36,061 nt of DNA from an uncultured Rickettsiales bacterium. GTDB taxonomy: Bacteria; Pseudomonadota; Alphaproteobacteria; Rickettsiales; CAZAGG01. Location of the stretch: NCBI GenBank assembly GCA_964439415.1, contig CAYTOJ010000002.1:1-36061 (forward strand). Reading direction: 5' to 3'. The notes under the pieces are model-generated. The model made no database searches, had not been told where the DNA came from, and saw only the letters and a program-made list of their open reading frames with translations. The translations under genes and the position numbers were made by a program. Below are positions 1,257 through 19,360 of this stretch, one piece after another. Numbering within the stretch: position 1 is the first letter of the stretch; each line of letters opens with the position of its first letter.

Positions 1257-3056
1257 TTAGAGCTTATCAGTAAAGTCTATAGTTCCTATTAACTCCGGCA
1301 AATCTATATCACCGGCCAGAACTTTATTTATTCCATCCATACCCATGCTGACAAAACCGTTCTTAAGCGCGTAATCCATCATGGTGTTACGGCTGGCATT
1401 GGTGTAGATAAGCTCATCCATCCCCTTATCTATCGGCAGTATCTCCAGAATCGCCACCCGGCCTTTATACCCCCTGAAATTACATTTAGGGCAGGCTCCG
1501 GCATCATATATATAAGGTGGATTCACGGCATTAACCCCTAGCAATTTGCATTCTTCCGGCGTTGACTTTCTCATTTTCCGGCAGTGTGGGCAAAGCTTGC
1601 GCGCCAAGCGCTGCGCGATGGAGCATATTAGAGTACCAACCAGAAGATGCCTCGGCACGCCTATATCCACCAGCCTGGGAATCGCACCTAAAGCATCGTT
1701 GGTGTGCAGGGTTGAATACACCTGGTGACCTGTCAGCGCCGAACGCACCGCCATAATGGCGGTTTCTTCATCACGCACCTCGCCGACGAATATCACATCA
1801 GGATCCTGACGGAGCAAAGCCTTGATACCACTGGCGAAATCCACGCCTGAGCCTTCCCTAACCTGGGTTTGCCTGATCAGCGGCAACTGATACTCCACCG
1901 GATCTTCCAAGGTCATGATATTGATATCCATGGAATTTATATAACTCAGGATAGAATAAAGCGTTGTGGTTTTACCGCTACCGGTAGGGCCTGTAACTAC
2001 AATGATTCCTTCCGGGCGCTTGATAAGTTTCTTCAGCAGCGTATCGTTATGCTCGCTGAATCCCAGTTTATCCAGCGGAACCAGAGCTTTTCGCTTATCC
2101 AGAAGCCTGAGAACCACGTTCTCGCCGTGCACCGTTGGCAGGGTGGATACACGAAAATCTACCTCACGGCCAAGCGCGTTGGATGAAATGCGCCCATCCT
2201 GCGGGTTGCGGCTCTCGGCTATATTCATGCCGGACATAATCTTGATACGAACCAGTATTGCCGCCCAGTAATCGCGGTGGAAGCTTTTTATCTGTGTTAG
2301 CTGGCCATCTAATCGGTAACGGACACGAACGAAATATCCTTCAGGTTCAATATGAACGTCAGAAGCGCCAGATCGTATAGCATCCACCAGCAAGGCGTTT
2401 ACAAAGCGGACGGTTGGGTTGACATACCCTTCCTGAACTTCCAGCTTCTGAGCTTTTTCCTTACCGCCGGATTCTATTTCCTTCAGAATACCGTCCAGCG
2501 ACATTTCATATTCGTAGTACTGGTCGATCATCTCCAGCACATCCGATTCCGCGCAGTAAACCGGCACTATGCGCATATTACGGGGGAAGCAGCGTTTGAT
2601 CTGATCTATCGCCAGCACGTTATAAATATCGGCCATGGCGACCTGCACGGAATCTGCCGTCTGCGTCACCGGTATCAGTTTATGGCGCAGCGCCAGGTCT
2701 TTCGGCACCTGCCGCACCAGTGCAATATCCAGGAAGGCAGATTTAGGGTCAAACTTCTGAGTTCCGGCGCTGTCAGCCAGAACCTGGCCTAAGGTACTTT
2801 CAGTTATAAAGCCGAAATCTACTAAAATAGCGCCAAGCAGTTTCTTGGAGTGGCTTTGTTCCTGCAGGGCTACTTGAAGCTGATCTTTAGAAATAACACC
2901 AAGGCCGATCAGTTTATCGCCCAGCTTCATCGGCGGTTTCGGCGCTTCCGCACCTATGGGGGCATCAGCTTGAGGATTTACGGATGCACCTTCTCCCCCT
3001 GCTCCAGCCGCATTTGCAGGATTTTGTTCCGGTTCAAGGTTAGGTTCGCCCACCAC
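1257..3056 (-). CDS. Type II secretion / type IV pilus assembly ATPase, GspE/PilB/MshE family, with an MshEN-type N-terminal domain
   Basis: 599 aa. Walker A is GPTGSGKTT. The Asp/Walker B region is LRQDPDVIFVGEVRD. The His box is TGHQVYSTLHTND. The tetracysteine motif is CPHC...CPKC. The N-terminus carries KLGDKLIGLGVISKDQLQVALQEQ + SHSKK + LLGAILVDFGFITESTLGQVLADS. The start is uncertain: either GTG 3056, followed by a 42-aa Ala/Gly/Pro-rich stretch, or ATG 2930 (M43), directly before the MshEN motif. Confidence 0.9.
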   Translation of the reverse strand: MVGEPNLEPEQNPANAAGAGGEGASVNPQADAPIGAEAPKPPMKLGDKLIGLGVISKDQLQVALQEQSHSKKLLGAILVDFGFITESTLGQVLADSAGTQKFDPKSAFLDIALVRQVPKDLALRHKLIPVTQTADSVQVAMADIYNVLAIDQIKRCFPRNMRIVPVYCAESDVLEMIDQYYEYEMSLDGILKEIESGGKEKAQKLEVQEGYVNPTVRFVNALLVDAIRSGASDVHIEPEGYFVRVRYRLDGQLTQIKSFHRDYWAAILVRIKIMSGMNIAESRNPQDGRISSNALGREVDFRVSTLPTVHGENVVLRLLDKRKALVPLDKLGFSEHNDTLLKKLIKRPEGIIVVTGPTGSGKTTTLYSILSYINSMDINIMTLEDPVEYQLPLIRQTQVREGSGVDFASGIKALLRQDPDVIFVGEVRDEETAIMAVRSALTGHQVYSTLHTNDALGAIPRLVDIGVPRHLLVGTLICSIAQRLARKLCPHCRKMRKSTPEECKLLGVNAVNPPYIYDAGACPKCNFRGYKGRVAILEILPIDKGMDELIYTNASRNTMMDYALKNGFVSMGMDGINKVLAGDIDLPELIGTIDFTDKL

Positions 3057-8995: not shown

Positions 8996-11900
8996 TTACT
9001 TTACCGTTTCGCTTAAGTTCTTATCTTTAAGCTGATTCTTCAGGGAATCCATATAACTGGTAACATTGGCGATGGAAGATGAAACTGTCCGGAAATTGCT
9101 GGCATTTACCTGATCCGCTATAGATGTAAAGAACTCAAGCTGCTGTTTTGCCGTTTCATTATCTACAGCAGGCAGATAACTACGCAGGAATTTCAGGCCT
9201 TCCGCGTCGCCACTGTAATTATAAGCAACTGATAATTTAAGCAGATTCTCAACATCAAACGCGCTTAGTTGCGATTTTTCGTCGGGCAGCGGCAGAATCG
9301 GTTTTAAATCGTTTACAACCGCTCCCCAGTTGCCTTGCCGCCAGTGAATTTCTGAGCGTAAGCGCCCTGCATCATCACCATTTAAGCCGCTTATTTCAGA
9401 GGCCGCTTCCTCATATTTATTCAAATCCATCAGCCCTTGCGCTTTCAATAGCCTGCGCTGGGTTATTACATCCTCCGGCAATGACGCATCCGTACTGTAA
9501 TCTATCGATTCTACCGCCAGTTCCGGGTGGCCATTCATAAGGTGCACTATTGCGAGGCGCGCCGCGACTTTTGCCTTCTCCACACCTTGCAGGCGGTACT
9601 TCACCTGGTGCGTGAGCAGGGCGGCGGCTCTATCCAGCAGTTCCATCCTGGTTAAGCGATCCGCCAGATTTCTAATCATCTCATCGCCTTCTGCGCCTAC
9701 GGGGGTGAGTTCACGGAACTCATAATAAAGTGTCAGAGCCTGAATCGGGGGCATTTTATCAGCTTGCCCTTTATTGAATATTTCAAGAAACAACTCGTTC
9801 ATACGCATCGCTGCCTGCTGACTCTCCTTTGTGCCGGGGTATGCACCCACTATGTGACGCATGGTCTCTAATGCATCCTTGTACTGGCCTTCTTCCTCCT
9901 CCAGTCTGGCGAGAAGTGGGAGTAATTTTACCTCAAAATCCGGCTCCCTCCATATATAACGCACAACTTCCAACTGTTTCAAAGCCTCATGCCTGGCAAT
10001 ACTGCCCTTATTCAGGCCGCTTTTGATTTTCTCAAGAGTGGCGCGTGCTCTGAACTCCCGGTCGGAAGCATCGGATATTAATTCCTCCCAGATATTCAGC
10101 GCCTTGGGGTAATTACTGCCAGCAATTGCAACTGAACCGGCAAATGTGGCGAGTTTGCCGTAATAGTCGCTATCTGATGTTAAAATGCCATTGGAACTCA
10201 ATTGCGCTAAATGCGCGTTGAGTGCGCTTGAATCCTCAGTTTCCAATATCCGCTTCAGAATTTTTGCGGCTATGCCATCTCTGATGTTCTCTGGGCAGGT
10301 TTTAAGTTTCTGCATAACCGCTGTTATGTCGTATGTAAGCTCTCCATGCCCGGATATATATCCCGCTAATCCCTCCAGTTCCTTATTGCCGCCTTCACTG
10401 AACAGCTTTTTTGCCTCATCGTATTTATCCATATAAAGGCTGGTTAGGCCCATTTTTTCATGCAGATTTTTCTGTTTGAGGAATTCCGGATACTCCTTAT
10501 TCAATCGCTCCAGTACTCCTAGCGATTCTCCCGCCCAGCCTCTATTGTGCAAGCCTTCCGCTAATTCAAGCAGTGCATTTGCTTTATCATGCGGTTTAGC
10601 CAGACCTATTTTTTGAACTAGTCTGGCTCTGAATTGTGTAATGCTTTCATCATGCGGCTCTTCTGGCGCGGCCTCCTCTTCTGCGCTTTCTGCGCTGCTA
10701 TTTCCGTGCGTAACTATAGCGGATGGATGATCCTGGCATTCCGAGCCGTTTTCCGCTCCATCACAATTTTTTTTTTCCGGTTGTTTTTCGGTTAGCTTTT
10801 CAGGCTTATGGCTTGCCTGATTATCATTATCGGCTGAAAAATATTCGCTGATGCCTTTCAGCAATAACCCTTGATCGGTGCTTTTTACCTGTATGTCTTC
10901 ATCTTTCAGTACCAGTACAACACCGCCCACGCTCTCCAGAACATTATAGGGCACATTGGCGATAGCACTGCTGATGCCGATTGAATGATTTTTAGCCAGA
11001 GCCAATACAATTTTCTCACCCGTAAGCGGGTCTGTGTAATCTGAAATAAAAGGCTCAGCGCCTGATGCGAACAAAACTTCATCACCACTGTGTTTAATCT
11101 CTATAGCTTGTGGTTTAAAAGAACTATCAGTAGCTTTTATAACAACCGATTTTTCATCTATAACCGCACGATAATCCCCATCACCAGGCGGTTGCGCCAG
11201 TATTTCCATATCGCCACTGGCCATGATGCGCTCCCAATCGTTCAGTTCCTTAGTTGTCTGATTCTCCTTCTGAGAATGCTTAATGGCTATGAACAGGCGG
11301 CCTTCCTTTCTGAAAGCTATCGCCCTGCCGTTATGGTTAATTGCGGTTTGCCAGGTCTGCTGGTCTGAATTTATATGATTTTCCTGCCCATCAGCAGGTT
11401 TTTCCGCCGGCTTTGGCGGATCTATTGCATGAGCCGATTCATCACCTGCCCTTGGGGTGATTGAACTCAGGATTTTTTCATCAGCACTTTGTGCTGGTTT
11501 TACGTTTATGATAACGCTGTTACCGTCCTGCGCCGCACTTATGGTTGAGGCTGCTTTTCTATCCAGATGCACTACAGTTTTGCCGCCTAAACTATTCGAA
11601 CTTAATGAATTCAGAACCGCGCCCGAGAAGGGCGGCAGAACTTCAACAGGCTCAATATCGGCCGCCTTGTTAAAAGTTATGGTTGCCGGGTTAGCCGCAT
11701 CATCCAGCTTGAACTGGGTAAGCTCCGGCCAGGCGTATATGATAACCGCACCACCGCCTTCATCAGGCTTGATTACTACCGGCACAGCCATCACGCGCCC
11801 TACCTCCGCCGCCTTATCAGCACTCACATGTACTGGTGCTGACGGTATGGATGGCGCAGGTGGGGATGGTGGTTGCACAGGCCTGATTATCTCAGAAGTT

Positions 11901-12484
11901 ATAGCAGGCTTTACTGCTTTTTTAGTGGTGTAGCTTTTATACTCCCCACCACTAAGGTGGCGGTGAGTATCCTCTTTATTTGACTGGGGGATACCCCCAG
12001 ACCCCCGCGCTGCGCGGGTCGCATCGCTCCCGATATACTCCACCACCTTTTCGTGGCGGAGCATATCTTGCGGCAGAGCCTTCTTAGGCGTATTTTTGAT
12101 TTCAGCTTTTTCCTGCACATCCTGCTGATTTATCTGACCGTTATATTTCACCAGGTCAAAGCCTGTTCCGCTGCTGCCGACAAAACGCCTGATTCTATAA
12201 CCCGGCTTCATAGTCATGATTATACCTGAGCCGTCATTACTTGCCTGGCTGTGTTCTATGGCCGACTCAAGCGATGCTTGCAGATTGCCCAGCGAAATAT
12301 CCTTCGGCGCAGCAAATTTTATAAAAATTCTATTGCCGTTCTGGCTGAATTTGTATGCCCCCCCGGTTATGCTGACTCTGGTGAAGCTGCCCATGTTCCT
12401 GGCCTCCACCCTGGCCTGATCTAATGCAAGCGCACCCCACGGCAGGAATGCAAAACAGGCTGCAAATAGAGTTATAATCCGCAT
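8996..12484 (-). CDS. Large secreted/periplasmic protein: two AMIN-like N-terminal modules, Pro-rich and acidic linkers, and a C-terminal TPR-like half of about 550 aa (function unknown)
   Basis: 1162 aa with a signal peptide (MRIITLFAACFAFLPWGALA). It has a Pro-rich linker (VQPPSPPAPSIPSAPV) and an acidic linker (SAESAEEEAAPEEPHDES). The C-terminal half is full of 34-residue-like helical repeats (A..LA.........A......L). The AMIN-like call is inferred from beta-strand patterning only. Confidence 0.6.
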   Translation of the reverse strand: MRIITLFAACFAFLPWGALALDQARVEARNMGSFTRVSITGGAYKFSQNGNRIFIKFAAPKDISLGNLQASLESAIEHSQASNDGSGIIMTMKPGYRIRRFVGSSGTGFDLVKYNGQINQQDVQEKAEIKNTPKKALPQDMLRHEKVVEYIGSDATRAARGSGGIPQSNKEDTHRHLSGGEYKSYTTKKAVKPAITSEIIRPVQPPSPPAPSIPSAPVHVSADKAAEVGRVMAVPVVIKPDEGGGAVIIYAWPELTQFKLDDAANPATITFNKAADIEPVEVLPPFSGAVLNSLSSNSLGGKTVVHLDRKAASTISAAQDGNSVIINVKPAQSADEKILSSITPRAGDESAHAIDPPKPAEKPADGQENHINSDQQTWQTAINHNGRAIAFRKEGRLFIAIKHSQKENQTTKELNDWERIMASGDMEILAQPPGDGDYRAVIDEKSVVIKATDSSFKPQAIEIKHSGDEVLFASGAEPFISDYTDPLTGEKIVLALAKNHSIGISSAIANVPYNVLESVGGVVLVLKDEDIQVKSTDQGLLLKGISEYFSADNDNQASHKPEKLTEKQPEKKNCDGAENGSECQDHPSAIVTHGNSSAESAEEEAAPEEPHDESITQFRARLVQKIGLAKPHDKANALLELAEGLHNRGWAGESLGVLERLNKEYPEFLKQKNLHEKMGLTSLYMDKYDEAKKLFSEGGNKELEGLAGYISGHGELTYDITAVMQKLKTCPENIRDGIAAKILKRILETEDSSALNAHLAQLSSNGILTSDSDYYGKLATFAGSVAIAGSNYPKALNIWEELISDASDREFRARATLEKIKSGLNKGSIARHEALKQLEVVRYIWREPDFEVKLLPLLARLEEEEGQYKDALETMRHIVGAYPGTKESQQAAMRMNELFLEIFNKGQADKMPPIQALTLYYEFRELTPVGAEGDEMIRNLADRLTRMELLDRAAALLTHQVKYRLQGVEKAKVAARLAIVHLMNGHPELAVESIDYSTDASLPEDVITQRRLLKAQGLMDLNKYEEAASEISGLNGDDAGRLRSEIHWRQGNWGAVVNDLKPILPLPDEKSQLSAFDVENLLKLSVAYNYSGDAEGLKFLRSYLPAVDNETAKQQLEFFTSIADQVNASNFRTVSSSIANVTSYMDSLKNQLKDKNLSETVK

Positions 12485-14250: not shown

Positions 14251-14982
14251 TCAGCTTATTGCGGCCAGGAAAGCTTTTTCAAGGCCGCGCCCGGGGTTAT
14301 AAGTGCCAATAAAATCACCTGGTTTTCCGGTAAAAATAATGGATGTATCGTGGAGTATCGCTACGCGGTCACAAATTTCTTCCAGGTCAGCCAGAATATG
14401 TGAACTGAAGAAAATTGAGCCGCCGTTGTTACGGTAATTCAGCATCTCATTTTTCAGCAGAATTCTGGCTTTTGGGTCAAGCCCGCTCATCGGTTCATCC
14501 AGAATTAATAACCGCGCCTTGGATAACAAGGCGGACATAAGGCCAAGCTTTTGCCCCATTCCTTTGGAATACCTGCCAACACGGCTGCCGAGTGCTTCAG
14601 GATTCAAATCCAGCCTCCGCGCCATATCAATTATATCGTCATTTGCCGGGCTTACATTATGATATGCCGTCGCAAGTTTTATGAACTCAAAGCCTTTAAA
14701 ATAGATTGAAGGCGAGAATTTCTCCGGCAGGAAGCATATCCCCTCCCTGGCTTTATGGTCAGAAATATCCTGACCAAAAATTCTGCCGGAACCATTATCC
14801 GCATCAAGTAACCCCAGAATAATTTTTATCATGGTGGTTTTGCCCATGCCGTTCAAACCAATCAGGCCAAAAATCTCCCCCTGCTCTAATGTAATATTTA
14901 CATTATTCAGCACAGATCGGCCATCAAAAGCTTTACTGATGGAATCCAGTTGAAGTGGGCTAAGTACCGGGTTTTGATTCAT
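14251..14982 (-). CDS. ABC transporter ATP-binding protein (ABC-2 type), with no permease gene adjacent
   Basis: 243 aa. Walker A is GLNGMGKTT, the signature is YSKGMGQKL, Walker B is LLILDEP, and the H-loop is SSHIL. Confidence 0.85.
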   Translation of the reverse strand: MNQNPVLSPLQLDSISKAFDGRSVLNNVNITLEQGEIFGLIGLNGMGKTTMIKIILGLLDADNGSGRIFGQDISDHKAREGICFLPEKFSPSIYFKGFEFIKLATAYHNVSPANDDIIDMARRLDLNPEALGSRVGRYSKGMGQKLGLMSALLSKARLLILDEPMSGLDPKARILLKNEMLNYRNNGGSIFFSSHILADLEEICDRVAILHDTSIIFTGKPGDFIGTYNPGRGLEKAFLAAIS

Positions 14983-15081: not shown

Positions 15082-15878
15082 TTACCAGTCAAGCAGAAAA
15101 ATAAAATTACAGGCGATGTTGTCATTGGTGATATAGTAAGCAGAGGAAGCGGGGGCAGTTATAGTACTACCGGAAGTTTCGCATGAACCAACTGTGGGGT
15201 GCAGTGTTCTGGTTTTGCCTATTCCTGGAATACCATCATCAATTTTTTTATCTATATTGTAAGCATCTACCGGCTTAAGTGCTGATCCGTAAGTAACGGT
15301 AGTATCAACTTCTTTACCAAACCATATAAAATTACCATAATTACCATCCCAATATCCCGCAACGCCTGATCTTGTAGGATAGGAATAAAGCGTATACCCG
15401 GCCTTTGCTATAGCCTTGGATGCTGGAACATTAGTTCCTAATACCGAATGCCACGGGTTTCCTGCACCAGAAAGACCAGTATAAGTACCGGGATACAGCC
15501 CAGCCGCAGATAATTGTTTCCAAGCCTGATAACTTTCAGATGTTGCACCAGCAACTGCACCATATTCAATTAAATCATCCCCATCGCCATTGGTTTCGCC
15601 TGAGAGGTAAGTGGAGATGTTATAACAATCACCGGGAATGCAGTTGTATTTCAGGTAAAAAGTATTCATAGCGGTCATTATCTGTTCCCGCTCACTGATG
15701 ATTTTATTCAGCTTGGCCGCTTTTATCAAATCCGCCCCGGCCAGTATGCCACCCACTAATAATCCAATTATCACCAGAACGATGGAGAGTTCAACCAGAG
15801 TAAAACCGCTATTTTTCTGCTTGACAGACTCTAAAAGCTTGTCAGTCTGGCTTCTGGCTTCTGGCTTCTGGCTCTCAT
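15082..15878 (-). CDS. Type IV pilin / pseudopilin-like protein with a prepilin cleavage-methylation N-terminus. The 5' end is out of frame with the only upstream ATG.
   Basis: The track ORF 15082..15774 starts at a GTG inside the hydrophobic helix. The same frame stays open upstream to the TAA at 15891-15889 and encodes ...KQKNSG|FTLVELSIVLVIIGLLVGGILAG (GGT-TTT at 15807-15802), with no ATG/GTG/TTG before the motif. The ATG at 15878-15876 is in another frame and ends at TAG 15833-15831. The C-terminal domain carries pilin-like features (YNCIPGDC; IDKKIDDGIPGIGK; a C-terminal Cys pair). Confidence 0.75.
15845..15872 (-). repeat. Heptanucleotide tandem repeat: coding-strand (GCCAGAA)x3 + GCCAGAC, plus-strand gtctggc(ttctggc)x3
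   Basis: Direct reading of 15845-15872. The tract lies between ATG 15878 and the prepilin motif. The unit length of 7 is not a multiple of 3. Confidence 0.9.
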
Positions 15879-15888
15879 ATATGCACTT

Positions 15889-16860
15889 TTAATTGTTACT
15901 GTTTACCGCCGCGACCGCCTCGCGGGTGAGGTCTGAAGCCCTGCCTTCGTCTATATACAAAGTGCGGCCTGTGAATGTCTGGTTAGGGTGCAGCGAGAAA
16001 TATACTTTATTAGAATTGGGGTTTACAGCAACCACCCCATTTCTCTGCCCTATGGTATATCCGCCATTGCCCATATCTCTGGCATTAGCCCGCCATGCAG
16101 GGAAAATGGCGTTAACGTCCGAAGTATGCCACTCAAAATCCACCTGATTGCGCGAAACTTTTACTATTCTGACACCCTCTACCATATCGCCGGGTTTTAT
16201 CATTGTATCATTTATCCATATACTCCATGATCCAGGCGCAAAATAGGCGATGGAATTAAGATAGATAATCGGCGTGATTATATTTCTGGGAGCTTCAGGG
16301 GCTTTAGTGGTTGGTGATTGATTAAGCAGGGGAATACTGCCCAAGATTTGCGCGGCATCAGGCTTTGGTGCATTTGTATCCAGCTGCTGCTTTTTCCTGA
16401 TTTTCATTTCCTGCCCCAATCCCGCCGCTTCCCTTAGTTTTCTCAGCGTGATCTCATCGTACATTATACTGCCGCTATTCCAGATTGGGGTAGTAAAGAA
16501 AGATTTCTCACCAATACCATTATTCTTATCTGCAAGTACTGTCTCAGGCTGCCTTTTTGGCTTTTTCGCAATAGGCCAGCTTCTTATCTCATCTGTTTTA
16601 TCCTGATTGTTACCCCCCCCGAACAAATCCCCTATACTTGCATTAGCGGCGGATACGCAGCAACACAGTATAATAATTGAGGCAAGCAATGCTGATTTAT
16701 ATCCTCTATAAGACTTCTCTCGAAACTCGCTGCGGTGAGCAAAATGCGCGAAGCGAGCATCGCAGAAACGCAAGTGTACTTTTGGGTACATGCGGATTTG
16801 AGAAGCGCAGCGACAAGCGAGTTTGCCAGCGCAGTAGAGTTTGGAGAGAAGTCTGTTCAT
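15889..16860 (-). CDS. Secreted pilus-assembly accessory protein, PilP/GspC-HR/MshK-like by motif. The first ~57 codons of the maximal ORF are repeat-derived.
   Basis: The maximal ORF is 323 aa. ATG 16860 overlaps the upstream stop (ATGA). Codons 3-50 are encoded by the family-2 repeat (16711-16854). A native-looking start is TTG 16689, preceded by AGAGGA, and gives the signal peptide M-LASIIILCCCVSAANA. The motif WSIWINDTMIKPGDMVEGVRIVKVSRNQVDFEW resembles the PilP/GspC/GspB strand motif. Confidence 0.6.
   Translation of the reverse strand: MNRLLSKLYCAGKLACRCASQIRMYPKVHLRFCDARFAHFAHRSEFREKSYRGYKSALLASIIILCCCVSAANASIGDLFGGGNNQDKTDEIRSWPIAKKPKRQPETVLADKNNGIGEKSFFTTPIWNSGSIMYDEITLRKLREAAGLGQEMKIRKKQQLDTNAPKPDAAQILGSIPLLNQSPTTKAPEAPRNIITPIIYLNSIAYFAPGSWSIWINDTMIKPGDMVEGVRIVKVSRNQVDFEWHTSDVNAIFPAWRANARDMGNGGYTIGQRNGVVAVNPNSNKVYFSLHPNQTFTGRTLYIDEGRASDLTREAVAAVNSNN
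16711..16854. repeat. Family-2 inverted-repeat element, full copy (144 bp)
   Basis: The termini agacttctctcgaaactcgctgcg... and ...cgcagtagagtttggagagaagtct are inverted repeats. The core gcgaagcgagcatcgcagaaacgcaagtgtacttttgggtacatgcggatttgag recurs at 26521-26575. The right half recurs at 29676-29734. Confidence 0.9.
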
Positions 16861-17507
16861 GTACCCCCCGGAGCTGGTATAGCTGGATCAGGCGCAAATT
16901 TAAATGCCAGCAGGTAGAGTGAGAATTTACCATCCACCATGGCAATTTCATTATCCATGGATATCTGCCTGATATTATCTACGCTTGCCTGGGATTTTTT
17001 CAGAATTTCAGCCGTTCCCATAATCAGCAACCCTGGAAATTTTGCCTTAACGGCATCCAGGAACTTGAAAATACTTTCATCGCTGTAGGATGACATCTCA
17101 ATATCAACCTGGCTGAAAACCATGGATAGCATATTTCTTTTAAACTCAGGCGCCTGTAACTCAACTGGCTGTTTGATTTTTACCTTCAGCCCGGTGATGC
17201 TGTACACATCCTTGTTCTGCTCAAGTGCTTCCAGTAAAATATCGGATTTTATCGCGGATTCCCCATACTTCTCTTCGCTTAGTTTATTAAATAAATCTAT
17301 GTTTCCGCTAGCTTTTTTGCCTTCATCCTCAGCTTTTAATATTTTCGCGTTCAATTGCGCCAGAGCATTCTGTTTCTGGGTTTTATCCTCCTCAATTTTT
17401 GTTGCGTATGATGATACCCCCAGGTAAATGCCGCCAAACACGGCAAGCAGACTTATAAACACTACGGACTCTATAATAATCCTGCGGAGTAGTATTTTTA
17501 TTTTCAT
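16857..17507 (-). CDS. Bitopic membrane protein with PilO/GspM/MshJ-like architecture
   Basis: 216 aa. It has an N-terminal TM helix (VVFISLLAVFGGIYLGV), a coiled coil (EEDKTQKQNALAQLNAKILKAEDEGKK), then an alpha/beta domain of about 110 aa. Its start overlaps the upstream stop (TAATG at 17505-17509). Confidence 0.55.
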   Translation of the reverse strand: MKIKILLRRIIIESVVFISLLAVFGGIYLGVSSYATKIEEDKTQKQNALAQLNAKILKAEDEGKKASGNIDLFNKLSEEKYGESAIKSDILLEALEQNKDVYSITGLKVKIKQPVELQAPEFKRNMLSMVFSQVDIEMSSYSDESIFKFLDAVKAKFPGLLIMGTAEILKKSQASVDNIRQISMDNEIAMVDGKFSLYLLAFKFAPDPAIPAPGGT

Positions 17508-19360
17508 TACTGCACCACCCCAGGAAGCTGGCTGTTGTCCGGAGCTTTCGGCAAAGTAATCTGCATGTCTATGGTTGTAATTTCATCCATATTTTTTGCA
17601 GCCGATTGCCTGGAATAATCCACTTCCATCACATCCTTACCCGCTAGCTCACCTGGAAGCTTGGCTATTGCAATATTATGATCCCCCAGTTGTTCTTTTA
17701 AGGATGCCGTTTTTGAAGAAGCCATCTTTTTTAGTGTTTTCTCATCGCCGTACTTTGTGAAATCCAGCTTTATATCGCACTCCATTGCGCCATCTATAGT
17801 AACCGGGGGTGCAGCCGGATCGTTCTTGCTAAATATTGCCACTGCATTTTTATTCTGCCACTTGAAAGCTGAGACATTCATTGTTTCATCAACCTCAGTC
17901 GCCAGAACCTCCATCAGATAGTACGGGTCATGTATCAATGATGCTAATTTATTATGAATATCCGTAACATTGATCACCTTCTCAAGATTAGTCGGCAAGG
18001 CTGAGTTGGAACTCTGTAATGTTAGTATTCTGGAGTTTGCCTGCTTCTGCTTATCCTCAATTTCCACAACCTCCAGTTTTGCTGATATTGCGCCGTAAAT
18101 TTCATAAGCCGCTGCCAGAAGTAACAGAGGAACCAGTATTCCCGCCGCCACTCGCCCCCCCAGAATCGCCCGCTGGAACAAAAATAACTTTGCTATGTAT
18201 GGTGTTTGCAGGGATACTTTTTTGCGTGGAAGTGCTGCAACGCTAACCGCAAGGAACACATCCGAGTACTTATCCTGCTTTTCAGCAGTATCCTTCATTC
18301 CCAGCAGTTCACATGCCTGGTAAGGAGTGAAGGAGTCCACATTGCTGGCGAGTATTTTATTCCTGTCTACAAACCCCAGTACCGCTTCCGCTGCCACAAT
18401 CACAACGTTCAGTTTCGATGCATCAGAATAACCAAGCCGCTTGATGTATTCCCTGGTGGTTGAGTATTCCTGCTCAATACTGCCGGCCAGTGCTTCAGGT
18501 GGGTCATCAAGCGCTGCCTGCGTTACCCTGGTGAAAGCCATTTTGCCATTTTTCAGAACAATCTGCCTGAGCCCGCCAACACGGTTATGGCCTATAAATA
18601 CAAACCAGTCCGGCGGAGTGTATTTATTATTATTTTTATCCTGTGATTTTTTTCCTTTTTTAATGTCCTTTGCTTCTGCTACTGGCTTGGCCTCAGCTTT
18701 TTTTGCTTTTTTCGCTTTTGGCTCAGGTGTCCAGTGAATTTTTTTATCTAAATCCAGCAATGCCTTCTCTGATTCCAGCGGTATAAGAAAAACACCACCG
18801 AACTTGTTCGGAAGGTTCGAGGCTATGTTTATCCATTCAGAAAGGGGATTCGGCGGCACTGAGATAAACATGTACTGCCATTCTTTTTTCTTATCCGGGC
18901 TGCGCCCTATACATATAAATGCTTTTAAGTCATCAGCCGCAAAGTCGCGCTCCAGTTTTCTTTTCGCTATCTTATCAGCGCTCATTTTAGCTACAGGCGG
19001 GAGATTCTGCACCGTATATGTCTGATCCTGAATATCCAGCAGAATGGATATCGGCGCACGTTTATTCAAGGCAAATAGGTCATTAATCGCTGCCATATCC
19101 TTAGGCGCTGAAGAGAGCGCGAACGCCCGTCGCACTACCTTCCTGCCGCTTAGGTAAAGCACTATCGCCCCATCCTCCCCTATTATCAGGACAAACTTGT
19201 TACCTGATTTTGGAGGCGCTTTTTCGCTTTTTTCCTTACTCTTTTTCAGCCCAAGTCTCCATATATGTACATCTTTTATGTTTTGCGCATGGCCGCCAAT
19301 CCAGCCCCATGCGCGTCTATACTGCTCGCGAATGAACTGCAAAGAACCCGCACTCTTCAT
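17507..19360 (-). CDS. Pilus/T2SS assembly protein with GspL- or fused PilM-PilN (MshI)-like architecture. The start codon and first ~33 codons are repeat-derived.
   Basis: 617 aa. It has a cytoplasmic domain (KFVLIIGEDGAIVLYLSGRKV...), a Lys-rich insert (KAKKAKKAEAKPVAEAKDIKKGKK), a single TM helix (VAAGILVPLLLLAAAYEIYGAI), a coiled coil and a periplasmic domain. The N-terminal MKSAGSLQFIREQYRRAWGWIGGHAQN is encoded by tripartite-element copy 2. Confidence 0.6.
   Translation of the reverse strand: MKSAGSLQFIREQYRRAWGWIGGHAQNIKDVHIWRLGLKKSKEKSEKAPPKSGNKFVLIIGEDGAIVLYLSGRKVVRRAFALSSAPKDMAAINDLFALNKRAPISILLDIQDQTYTVQNLPPVAKMSADKIAKRKLERDFAADDLKAFICIGRSPDKKKEWQYMFISVPPNPLSEWINIASNLPNKFGGVFLIPLESEKALLDLDKKIHWTPEPKAKKAKKAEAKPVAEAKDIKKGKKSQDKNNNKYTPPDWFVFIGHNRVGGLRQIVLKNGKMAFTRVTQAALDDPPEALAGSIEQEYSTTREYIKRLGYSDASKLNVVIVAAEAVLGFVDRNKILASNVDSFTPYQACELLGMKDTAEKQDKYSDVFLAVSVAALPRKKVSLQTPYIAKLFLFQRAILGGRVAAGILVPLLLLAAAYEIYGAISAKLEVVEIEDKQKQANSRILTLQSSNSALPTNLEKVINVTDIHNKLASLIHDPYYLMEVLATEVDETMNVSAFKWQNKNAVAIFSKNDPAAPPVTIDGAMECDIKLDFTKYGDEKTLKKMASSKTASLKEQLGDHNIAIAKLPGELAGKDVMEVDYSRQSAAKNMDEITTIDMQITLPKAPDNSQLPGVVQ

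Follow-up and report, generated by a model that had tools for sequence, protein, structure and literature searches.

A heptanucleotide array in the leader-coding region of a type IV pilin gene as a candidate phase-variation switch in an uncultured alphaproteobacterium

A contig assigned to an uncultured Rickettsiales bacterium (GenBank assembly GCA_964439415.1, contig CAYTOJ010000002.1, positions 1 to 36,061; this whole stretch is called the window here) carries on its minus strand a type IV pilin gene whose leader-coding region contains a perfect heptanucleotide tandem array. The pilin assignment made in an initial annotation of the sequence was borne out by two family models, as the product matched Pfam PF07963 N_methyl (E = 6e-7, 29.2 bits against a cut-off of 21.2) and TIGR02532 (25.9 bits against a cut-off of 16.3). 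Its prepilin signature is KQKNSG^FTLVELSIVLVIIGLLVGGILAG, where the caret marks the cleavage site, with G at -1, F at +1 and E at +5 ahead of a hydrophobic helix some 20 residues long. As a type IV pilin, the protein belongs among surface-exposed or interaction determinants. The leader sequence is present, but the hydrophilic, basic leader of a prepilin begins at a start codon, and the sequenced allele has none in frame; four related proteins (P0002, P0003, P0004, and P0006) do.

The arrangement around the leader is summarized in Table 1. The upstream gene, an open reading frame (ORF) of 323 amino acids, shares the frame of the pilin, and 10 nucleotides (nt) lie between its stop codon and the ATG at 15878-15876. 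This ATG is followed by AG and then by the array, for which Tandem Repeats Finder reported a period of 7, 4.0 copies, and 100% matches. Translation from the ATG gives MRARSQKPEARLTSF and is terminated by TAG. The pilin frame, in turn, reads KCIYESQKPEARSQTDKLLESVKQKNSG^FTLVELSIVLVIIG directly after the stop codon of the upstream gene (in a longer reading, KCIYESQKPEARSQTDKLLESVKQKNSG^FTLVELSIVLVIIGLLVGG…). No further stop lies between that TAA and the pilin, and from the TAA to the cleavage site the pilin frame contains no ATG, GTG, or TTG. The ATG at 15878-15876 lies 71 nt ahead of the G(-1) codon. Gain of one unit would make this distance 78 nt and loss of two units 57 nt, and either change brings the ATG into frame. 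Start codon, array, and G^F site (15807) stand in the order of a frame switch, as they do at five related loci. The coordinates, the frame arithmetic, and the lack of an in-frame start given in the initial annotation were all reproduced on the minus strand, and its repeat, GCCAGAA x3 plus GCCAGAC at 15872-15845, is (AGCCAGA)x4 read one base later. It had also dismissed the mechanically assigned start, GTG 15774, and this codon indeed falls within the hydrophobic helix.

Several properties of the array itself are those of a simple sequence repeat (SSR) able to shift a reading frame. The unit length is not a multiple of three, and the four units exceed the minimum of three that PhasomeIt applies to units of 6-9 nt (PMC5953494). 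Among perfect tandem repeats with at least three units of 4-9 nt, it is the only one in the 36,061 bases. It is free of stops in all three frames, each of which encodes the 7-residue periodic peptide SQKPEAR. A promoter and terminator scan returned nothing informative around the array.

Table 1 Features of the pilin locus in the window, leader arrays of related loci, and example arrays from unrelated prepilin-like genes. Negative positions of start codons are distances in nt to the G(-1) codon; ON and OFF denote a candidate start in or out of the pilin frame.
Locus	Feature	Position	Strand	Remark
Window	Upstream 323-aa ORF, no family match	15889..16860	-	TAA 15891-15889
Window	AAG codon in pilin frame (K of KCIY)	15886..15888	-	Aligns with ATG of P0004 (MCIY) and P0003 (..MCSV)
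Window	GTG at -79, position like the GTG starts of L031 and L032	15884..15886	-	Dead here (GTG CAT ATA TGA)
Window	ATG, only start whose frame stays open through the array	15876..15878	-	71 nt before G(-1), out of pilin frame
Window	Heptanucleotide array (AGCCAGA)x4, perfect	15846..15873	-	Sole SSR with 4-9 nt unit in the window
Window	TGA stop of one off frame, one base past the array	15842..15844	-	Same position in 7/7 related loci
Window	Post-array leader segment in pilin frame, (T)DKLLESVKQKNSG, ending at G(-1) codon 15807-15805	15805..15845	-	Protein-conserved in relatives, start-free
Window	TAG stop of the ATG frame (other off frame)	15831..15833	-	TAG or TAA here in 7/7 related loci
Window	Mature type IV pilin coding region, 240 codons from F(+1), FTLVELSIVLVIIG…	15082..15804	-	Intact; stop 15084-15082
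Window / L033	AGCCAGA x4.0	ATG at -71		OFF
L002 (P0005)	AGAAGCC x5.9	ATG at -88		OFF
L030 (P0010)	AAGTCAG x4.0	ATG at -79		OFF; pilin-frame TAA directly 5' of array
L031 (P0011)	AGTCAGA x7.1	GTG at -95, GGGGGG before		OFF
L032 (P0012)	GAAACCA x7.6	GTG at -97, GAGGAAG before		OFF
L044 (P0015)	GCCAGAA x8 plus 5 nt	AAGGAAG, 8 nt, ATG abutting array		OFF; second frameshift further in
L001 (P0004)	Decayed remnant only, GCCAGCA CTCAGGC	ATG at -78		ON (in frame)
P0006	Leader MRTQQFRSQKPEARSQKPEARSQCEGLVESVKQKNSG^F
P0003	Leader MNMCSVLSAQKPEARSQKPEARSQREGLIAPVKQKNSG^F
P0002	Leader MIHNCRRQKAEGRRQCEGLVETAKQKNSG^F
L040	Example array	near 1400-1521	-
L037	Example array	540-632
L042	Example array	982-1065

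A protein search recovered 14 close relatives of the pilin (55-72% identity). A metagenome sample that also holds the window locus contains at least 13 pilin relatives, 65-72% identical, at separate loci. P0002, P0003, P0004, and P0006 are full-length prepilins with long leaders, P0014 (55%) has a short leader, and the predicted proteins P0001 (the window's own), P0005, P0007-P0013, and P0015 begin inside or after the hydrophobic helix. Such N-terminally truncated calls account for 10 of the 15 proteins in this clade, compared with 2 of 105 elsewhere in the family (Fisher p = 1.6e-9). DNA was read for seven loci, all from the ENA assembly ERZ3430527 (coverage 2.5-3.2x, 44-49% G+C), and the genes flanking them differ from one locus to the next.

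A perfect heptanucleotide array occupies the leader at six of these seven loci, with 4 to about 9 units. The unit varies by locus (AGCCAGA, AGTCAGA, and AAACCAG, with AGAAGGC deduced from the peptide of P0002). The related arrays begin 0-10 nt past an ATG or GTG, and sequences resembling a Shine-Dalgarno element precede some of these starts (AAGGAAG in L044 and GAGGAAG in L032). The six loci with arrays are all out of frame and one unit step away from ON, and in the pilin frame none of the loci has an ATG, GTG, or TTG from the array to G^F. The comparison of unit numbers among relatives, proposed in the initial annotation as a check, thus yielded perfect arrays of their own at the same leader position, with differing counts and units. 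Furthermore, six SSRs were detected in 49.7 kb of DNA of the population, and every one is a heptanucleotide array in a pilin leader.

P0002, P0003, and P0006, which are known as proteins, represent the in-frame state. Their leaders are translated arrays (…RSQKPEARSQKPEARSQ…G^FTLVEL); the underlying repeats were deduced from peptide periodicity, seven amino acids corresponding to 21 nt or three units. These leaders closely resemble the long-leader product that the initial annotation had predicted for an ON allele of the window gene. Counting truncated calls as OFF where only the protein is known, the array-bearing copies divide into about 3 ON and 9 or 10 OFF, which is near the one-third expected for unselected frames.

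The segment between array and cleavage site is kept as protein, x-(E/D)-G-L-(L/V)-x-x-V-K-x-K-N-(S/A)-G, and never holds a start codon, so the pilin can be made only if translation passes through the array. At all seven loci each off frame runs into a stop, one into a TGA right after the array and the other into a TAG or TAA four codons further on, although the pilin-frame residues overlapping these stops vary between loci. Within this segment (window 15805-15845, minus strand; L001, L002, L030, L031, L032, and L044), the nucleotides T GTC AAG are invariant in 7 of 7 loci. The residue whose codon ends in the invariant T is variable (S, Y, P, T, or L), and neither protein conservation nor the off-frame stops explain the invariance.

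The frames also bear on the idea that the pilin is made from the four-unit allele as it stands, by initiation at a non-canonical codon such as ATA 15882-15880, by frameshifting near the array, or by readthrough of the upstream TAA. In its favour, no stop interrupts the pilin frame before that TAA is reached, the frame coincides with that of the 323-aa ORF, and the ATG frame ends in TTT TAG, which may be a shifty stop. Readthrough, on the other hand, would produce a leader of 350 aa, which is implausible for a prepilin. An upstream non-canonical start is excluded at L030 because a pilin-frame TAA lies directly 5' of its array, and no near-cognate codon other than AAG or AGG is found there. The window and L031 would need a frame correction of -1, but L002, L030, L032, and L044 one of +1, no slippery motif is shared, and the leader RNA has no significant fold (z = 0.07). 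Programmed ribosomal frameshifting was rejected on these grounds, and we regard recoding or non-canonical initiation in general as very improbable.

The pilin genes themselves appear to be maintained. Apart from L044, the mature coding regions are intact (239-243 codons), and pairwise comparison of these six gave proportions of synonymous differences (pS) of 0.61-0.74, which are saturated, with ratios of nonsynonymous to synonymous divergence (dN/dS) of 0.07-0.18. Pseudogene decay was therefore rejected as a general explanation. The OFF states must be young or reversible, because genes that diverged so long ago would not have stayed intact had they been permanently without a start. Perfect arrays with differing units in genes whose synonymous sites are saturated further imply ongoing turnover within each array. 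The remaining locus, L044 (P0015), combines the longest array with an extra T in the conserved CYNISTYL region (about 829-900), and may be a pseudogene or contain a sequencing error at low coverage.

A different history is conceivable for the window copy, namely that it was silenced by loss of its start codon (ATG TGC to AAG TGC at 15888-15886), the array being part of a formerly in-frame leader of a gene that is now silent or decaying. Judging from the alignment, this AAG may derive from an ancestral start by mutation: KCIY in the pilin frame corresponds to MCIY in P0004, with other codons (TGC ATA TAT against TGT ATT TAC), and both the AAG and the four units are common to two strain haplotypes. 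The additional internal frameshift of L044 likewise indicates that some copies may truly decay. Nevertheless, start loss seems unlikely here. The mature ORF is intact and under purifying selection, the other five array-bearing loci are OFF by frame alone relative to clear starts, with no mutated in-frame start, and the ATG at -71 aligns with the sole candidate start of L002 (ATATGGATAG against ATATGAGAG). Even if the start had been lost, a change of one unit relative to the ATG at -71 would restore expression, and slippage relative to this ATG would be the fast route back to ON, whichever way the OFF state arose.

The window locus is also present in an independent ENA contig (L033), which differs from it by about 17 single-nucleotide polymorphisms (SNPs) in 2.6 kb (about 0.65%). 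Eleven of these SNPs lie in a 112-nt stretch inside an ABC-ATPase gene (14251-14982; window 14263-14374, L033 2016-2127), a cluster that suggests strain microdiversity or a small recombination tract. The initial annotation had allowed that the frame offset might stem from an assembly or indel error, and two circumstances could be cited for such an artefact, namely that the coverage of the ENA contigs is only about 3x and that De Bruijn assemblers can miscount long tandem arrays. The 28-nt array of the window is, by comparison, shorter than typical reads and k-mers, and in five of the six loci the array-linked offset is the sole disruption of a gene of about 240 codons (L044 having the one extra internal frameshift). 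As L033 represents a different SNP haplotype and carries an identical array, an assembly error at the window array is excluded, and an artefact in any form is hardly credible.

Taken together, we consider that the array is probably an SSR contingency switch within the leader-coding part of the type IV pilin gene, a slipped-strand ON/OFF reading that is supported by comparison with the related loci. Translation would start at the ATG at -71, which we take to be the start used, 10 nt past the stop of the upstream gene, and would proceed into (AGCCAGA)n. Since 7 equals 1 modulo 3, gain or loss of a unit by slipped-strand mispairing during replication would move the prepilin sequence into or out of frame. 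With four units, the ribosome would stop at TAG 15833-15831 and no pilin would be made (OFF), whereas with five or two units the product would be MRARSQKPEARSQ…TDKLLESVKQKNSG^FTLVEL… (ON). Prepilin peptidase would then cut off the leader. In type IV pilins, removal of the leader at G^F leaves the mature protein unaffected, so the repeat-encoded peptide would be absent from the pilus and changes of three units would be harmless. With units that are free of stops and encode SQKPEAR in any frame, the leader would stay hydrophilic and basic at every ON length. The same device would operate on at least six, and probably ten or more, related pilin genes of one organism or population, in which the arrays presumably slip at a high rate. 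Each cell would then express a changing subset of its pilin repertoire, much as in the opa family of Neisseria.

The slipped-strand switch proposed in the initial annotation thus fits the comparative data as a prediction. Unit numbers range from 4 to about 9 across the related loci (3 ON and 9-10 OFF), but at the window locus the two assemblies both have four units and show no length difference, which lends no support to hypermutability at this array. Several other points weigh against the switch. Four units are at the short, least mutable end of known switches, and the ATG at -71 has no clear Shine-Dalgarno sequence. The pilin frame of the four-unit allele is in register with AAG 15888-15886, which is aligned to the ATG of P0004 and P0003, so the OFF state could reflect a start-codon substitution instead of slippage. 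Moreover, the related DNA comes from a single SPAdes-style assembly at about 3x, in which the number of units given for the longest arrays (50-62 nt) may be inexact, and a common genome for the relatives is suggested by shared sample, coverage, and G+C content.

A PilB/GspE-type ATPase with an MshEN domain is encoded at 1257-3056 of the window, which also has genes for housekeeping and for the cell envelope. Immediately before the pilin come three ORFs (617, 216, and 323 aa; 15889-19360, minus strand) that had no Pfam or NCBIfam match, and they may perhaps be unrecognised components of pilus assembly. Two homopolymers in the window are slippage-prone although the ORFs containing them are intact: a run of C8 at 16613-16620 (G8 on the coding strand) within the 323-aa ORF, and a run of T10 at 10767-10776 (A10 on the coding strand) within an ORF of 1162 aa (8996-12484). 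In the pilin itself, residues invariant across the relatives include the conserved cysteines C83, C88, C236, and C260.

The window's PheS shares no more than 67% identity with any other database sequence, and its named matches are all from Alphaproteobacteria (Rickettsiales, Azospirillaceae, Hyphomicrobiales, and Rhodospirillales). The alphaproteobacterial origin assumed in the initial annotation therefore holds, for a lineage without close sequenced relatives. Distant relatives of the pilin come mostly from bins carrying a Rickettsiales or Alphaproteobacteria label, with some from Planctomycetota and Verrucomicrobiota bins. Two scans of species-representative genomes found no close relative, only pilins of 30-51% identity, and heptanucleotide arrays were present in 0 of 35 of these, whose leaders are short and ordinary. 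Leader repeats of other unit lengths are found in two Rickettsiales bins that hold more distant members of the family. In L021 (ssMAG-31, about 2960-3000), a long (AG)n run ends at the A^FTLIEL site and the ATG is out of frame, and in L027 (F1-140-MAGs051, about 3005-3030), (GCAAA)x4.4 directly follows an in-frame ATG.

Leader heptanucleotides also occur outside this family. When JGI metagenomes were scanned for a pattern of at least 2.4 CAGAARN units located 30-60 nt before GFTLVE, 10 loci (L034-L043) were returned, of which 9 are distinct, all in unrelated genes of prepilin type (G^FTLVE). Runs of 3-4.6 perfect units are frequent among them, and some leaders contain two or three different heptanucleotide arrays; the units include GCAGAAA, AAACAGA, CAGAAGT, AGTCCAC, CTGCCCA, CTATTCA, CATTCTG, and GAAGTAT. 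Most are in frame, and at two loci the units precede the probable start. At some loci, TCTG-type (reverse-complement) units come after CAGA-type units, so that a hairpin could form. Neighbouring pilin-like genes on the same contigs, which had not been selected by the pattern, have other heptanucleotide units in 3 of 10 cases and no arrays of period 4, 5, 6, 8, or 9, only of period 7. We had considered a contrast between imperfect in-frame arrays in the metagenome loci and perfect out-of-frame arrays in the window's clade, and dropped it, since several metagenome loci are perfect and in frame with 3-4.6 units. Heptameric tandem repeats are reported to be over-represented in bacterial genomes in general, with polymerase slippage as the suggested cause (Mrazek 2007, as cited in PMC4692102). 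A slippage bias of this kind may explain period 7 both here and in the unrelated prepilin leaders, although the repeats described there are mainly intergenic (e.g., the G-rich GGGAATC), with no link to pilin leaders reported.

The same metagenomic genes raise the question of whether the heptanucleotide units serve as a cis-regulatory element, either binding sites or an element of the mRNA 5' region, with the effect on frame being incidental. Units with a CAGAA core precede the likely start in L036 and L038, and units followed by their own reverse complement, with possible hairpins, occur in L039, L042, and L043. In the window's clade, however, no start codon lies between array and cleavage site, the post-array leader is conserved as protein, the array is translated in the ON relatives, the predicted RNA fold is not significant, and the unit sequence varies among relatives. 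A purely regulatory function is therefore improbable for the clade.

By analogy, the nearest counterpart of such a switch is the opa family of Neisseria. Stern et al. reportedly placed the CTCTT repeats of opa within the signal-peptide coding region in 1986. One N. gonorrhoeae strain has 11 phase-variable opa loci with these pentanucleotide repeats (PMC11868660). Both systems comprise a family of related surface-protein genes, each with its own array of a non-multiple-of-3 unit in a cleaved leader, and in both each gene would be turned ON or OFF independently by frame, with the repeat-encoded peptide removed from the mature protein. Unlike opa, the unit here is 7 nt instead of 5 and its sequence differs between loci. 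The product is a type IV pilin with a class III leader processed by prepilin peptidase, whereas Opa is a Sec-dependent beta-barrel outer-membrane protein, and the switch is predicted from sequence in an uncultured alphaproteobacterium.

Pilus-associated genes of Neisseria are themselves subject to SSR switches, among them the poly-G tract of pilC. The pilC tract, as proposed for the present array, switches the translational frame close to the 5' end of a gene connected with the pilus, but it is a homopolymer in a tip adhesin gene at one or two loci, as opposed to heptanucleotides in a repertoire of pilin subunits; the phase-variable genes of Neisseria have been surveyed (PMC5953494). Antigenic variation by gene conversion between pilE and pilS (PMC3547852) similarly draws on many pilin-related sequences in one genome to produce pilus diversity. 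The pilS copies, however, lack a promoter and the 5' coding region and act as donors, whereas all copies here keep the leader, cleavage site, and N-terminal helix, and silent cassettes of the pilS type were rejected for that reason. Synonymous divergence in the conserved 5' part also argues against recent conversion, in contrast to pilE/pilS. In Haemophilus influenzae, heptanucleotides occur upstream of hmw1A and hmw2A (TGAAAGA), at a TonB-dependent receptor gene (AACAACC), and inside hmw1A (AATTTTG) (PMC2651432). As in our prediction, these units act, or are predicted to act, as phase-variation switches, including by intragenic frameshifting, but they are mostly located in promoters, form much longer tracts (13-38 units), and belong to non-pilin genes. 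SSR contingency loci have been described in Bartonella, and hence within Alphaproteobacteria (PMC11466379). Bartonella is a host-associated pathogen, and the title and abstract of that report do not mention a pilin-leader array.

The searchable literature contained no description of heptanucleotide or other repeat arrays in prepilin leaders, or of matching pilin phase variation, in agreement with the statement in the initial annotation that none was known for an alphaproteobacterial pilin. The mechanism is already known; its use on a prepilin leader and across a pilin repertoire in an uncultured alphaproteobacterium appears to be undescribed. To our knowledge, SSR phase variation is known almost entirely from culturable host-adapted pathogens. 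Here, its signature is seen on pilin genes of an alphaproteobacterium represented by metagenomes only, in the form of private perfect arrays, a mixture of ON and OFF copies, intact genes under selection, and off-frame stops, and, as far as sequence comparison can tell, this support is unusually good for a metagenomic locus. We further put forward, tentatively, that the organism, a deep-branching and uncultured alphaproteobacterium, may possess a combinatorial system of pilus variation, in which at least a dozen major-pilin genes would each be controlled by their own leader array, both off frames being closed by conserved stops shortly after it. Heptanucleotide arrays in leaders may at the same time be a recurrent and hitherto undescribed device across several uncultured lineages, as suggested by L034-L043, with other unit lengths in L021 and L027.

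If the switch is confirmed, it would account for the truncation of these genes by annotation pipelines, which called 10 of the 15 relatives without the prepilin motif. It would also add a third way of varying type IV pili to gene conversion and DNA inversion, and would imply that contingency loci shape the surface structures of environmental or symbiotic bacteria, perhaps under pressure from phages or grazers.

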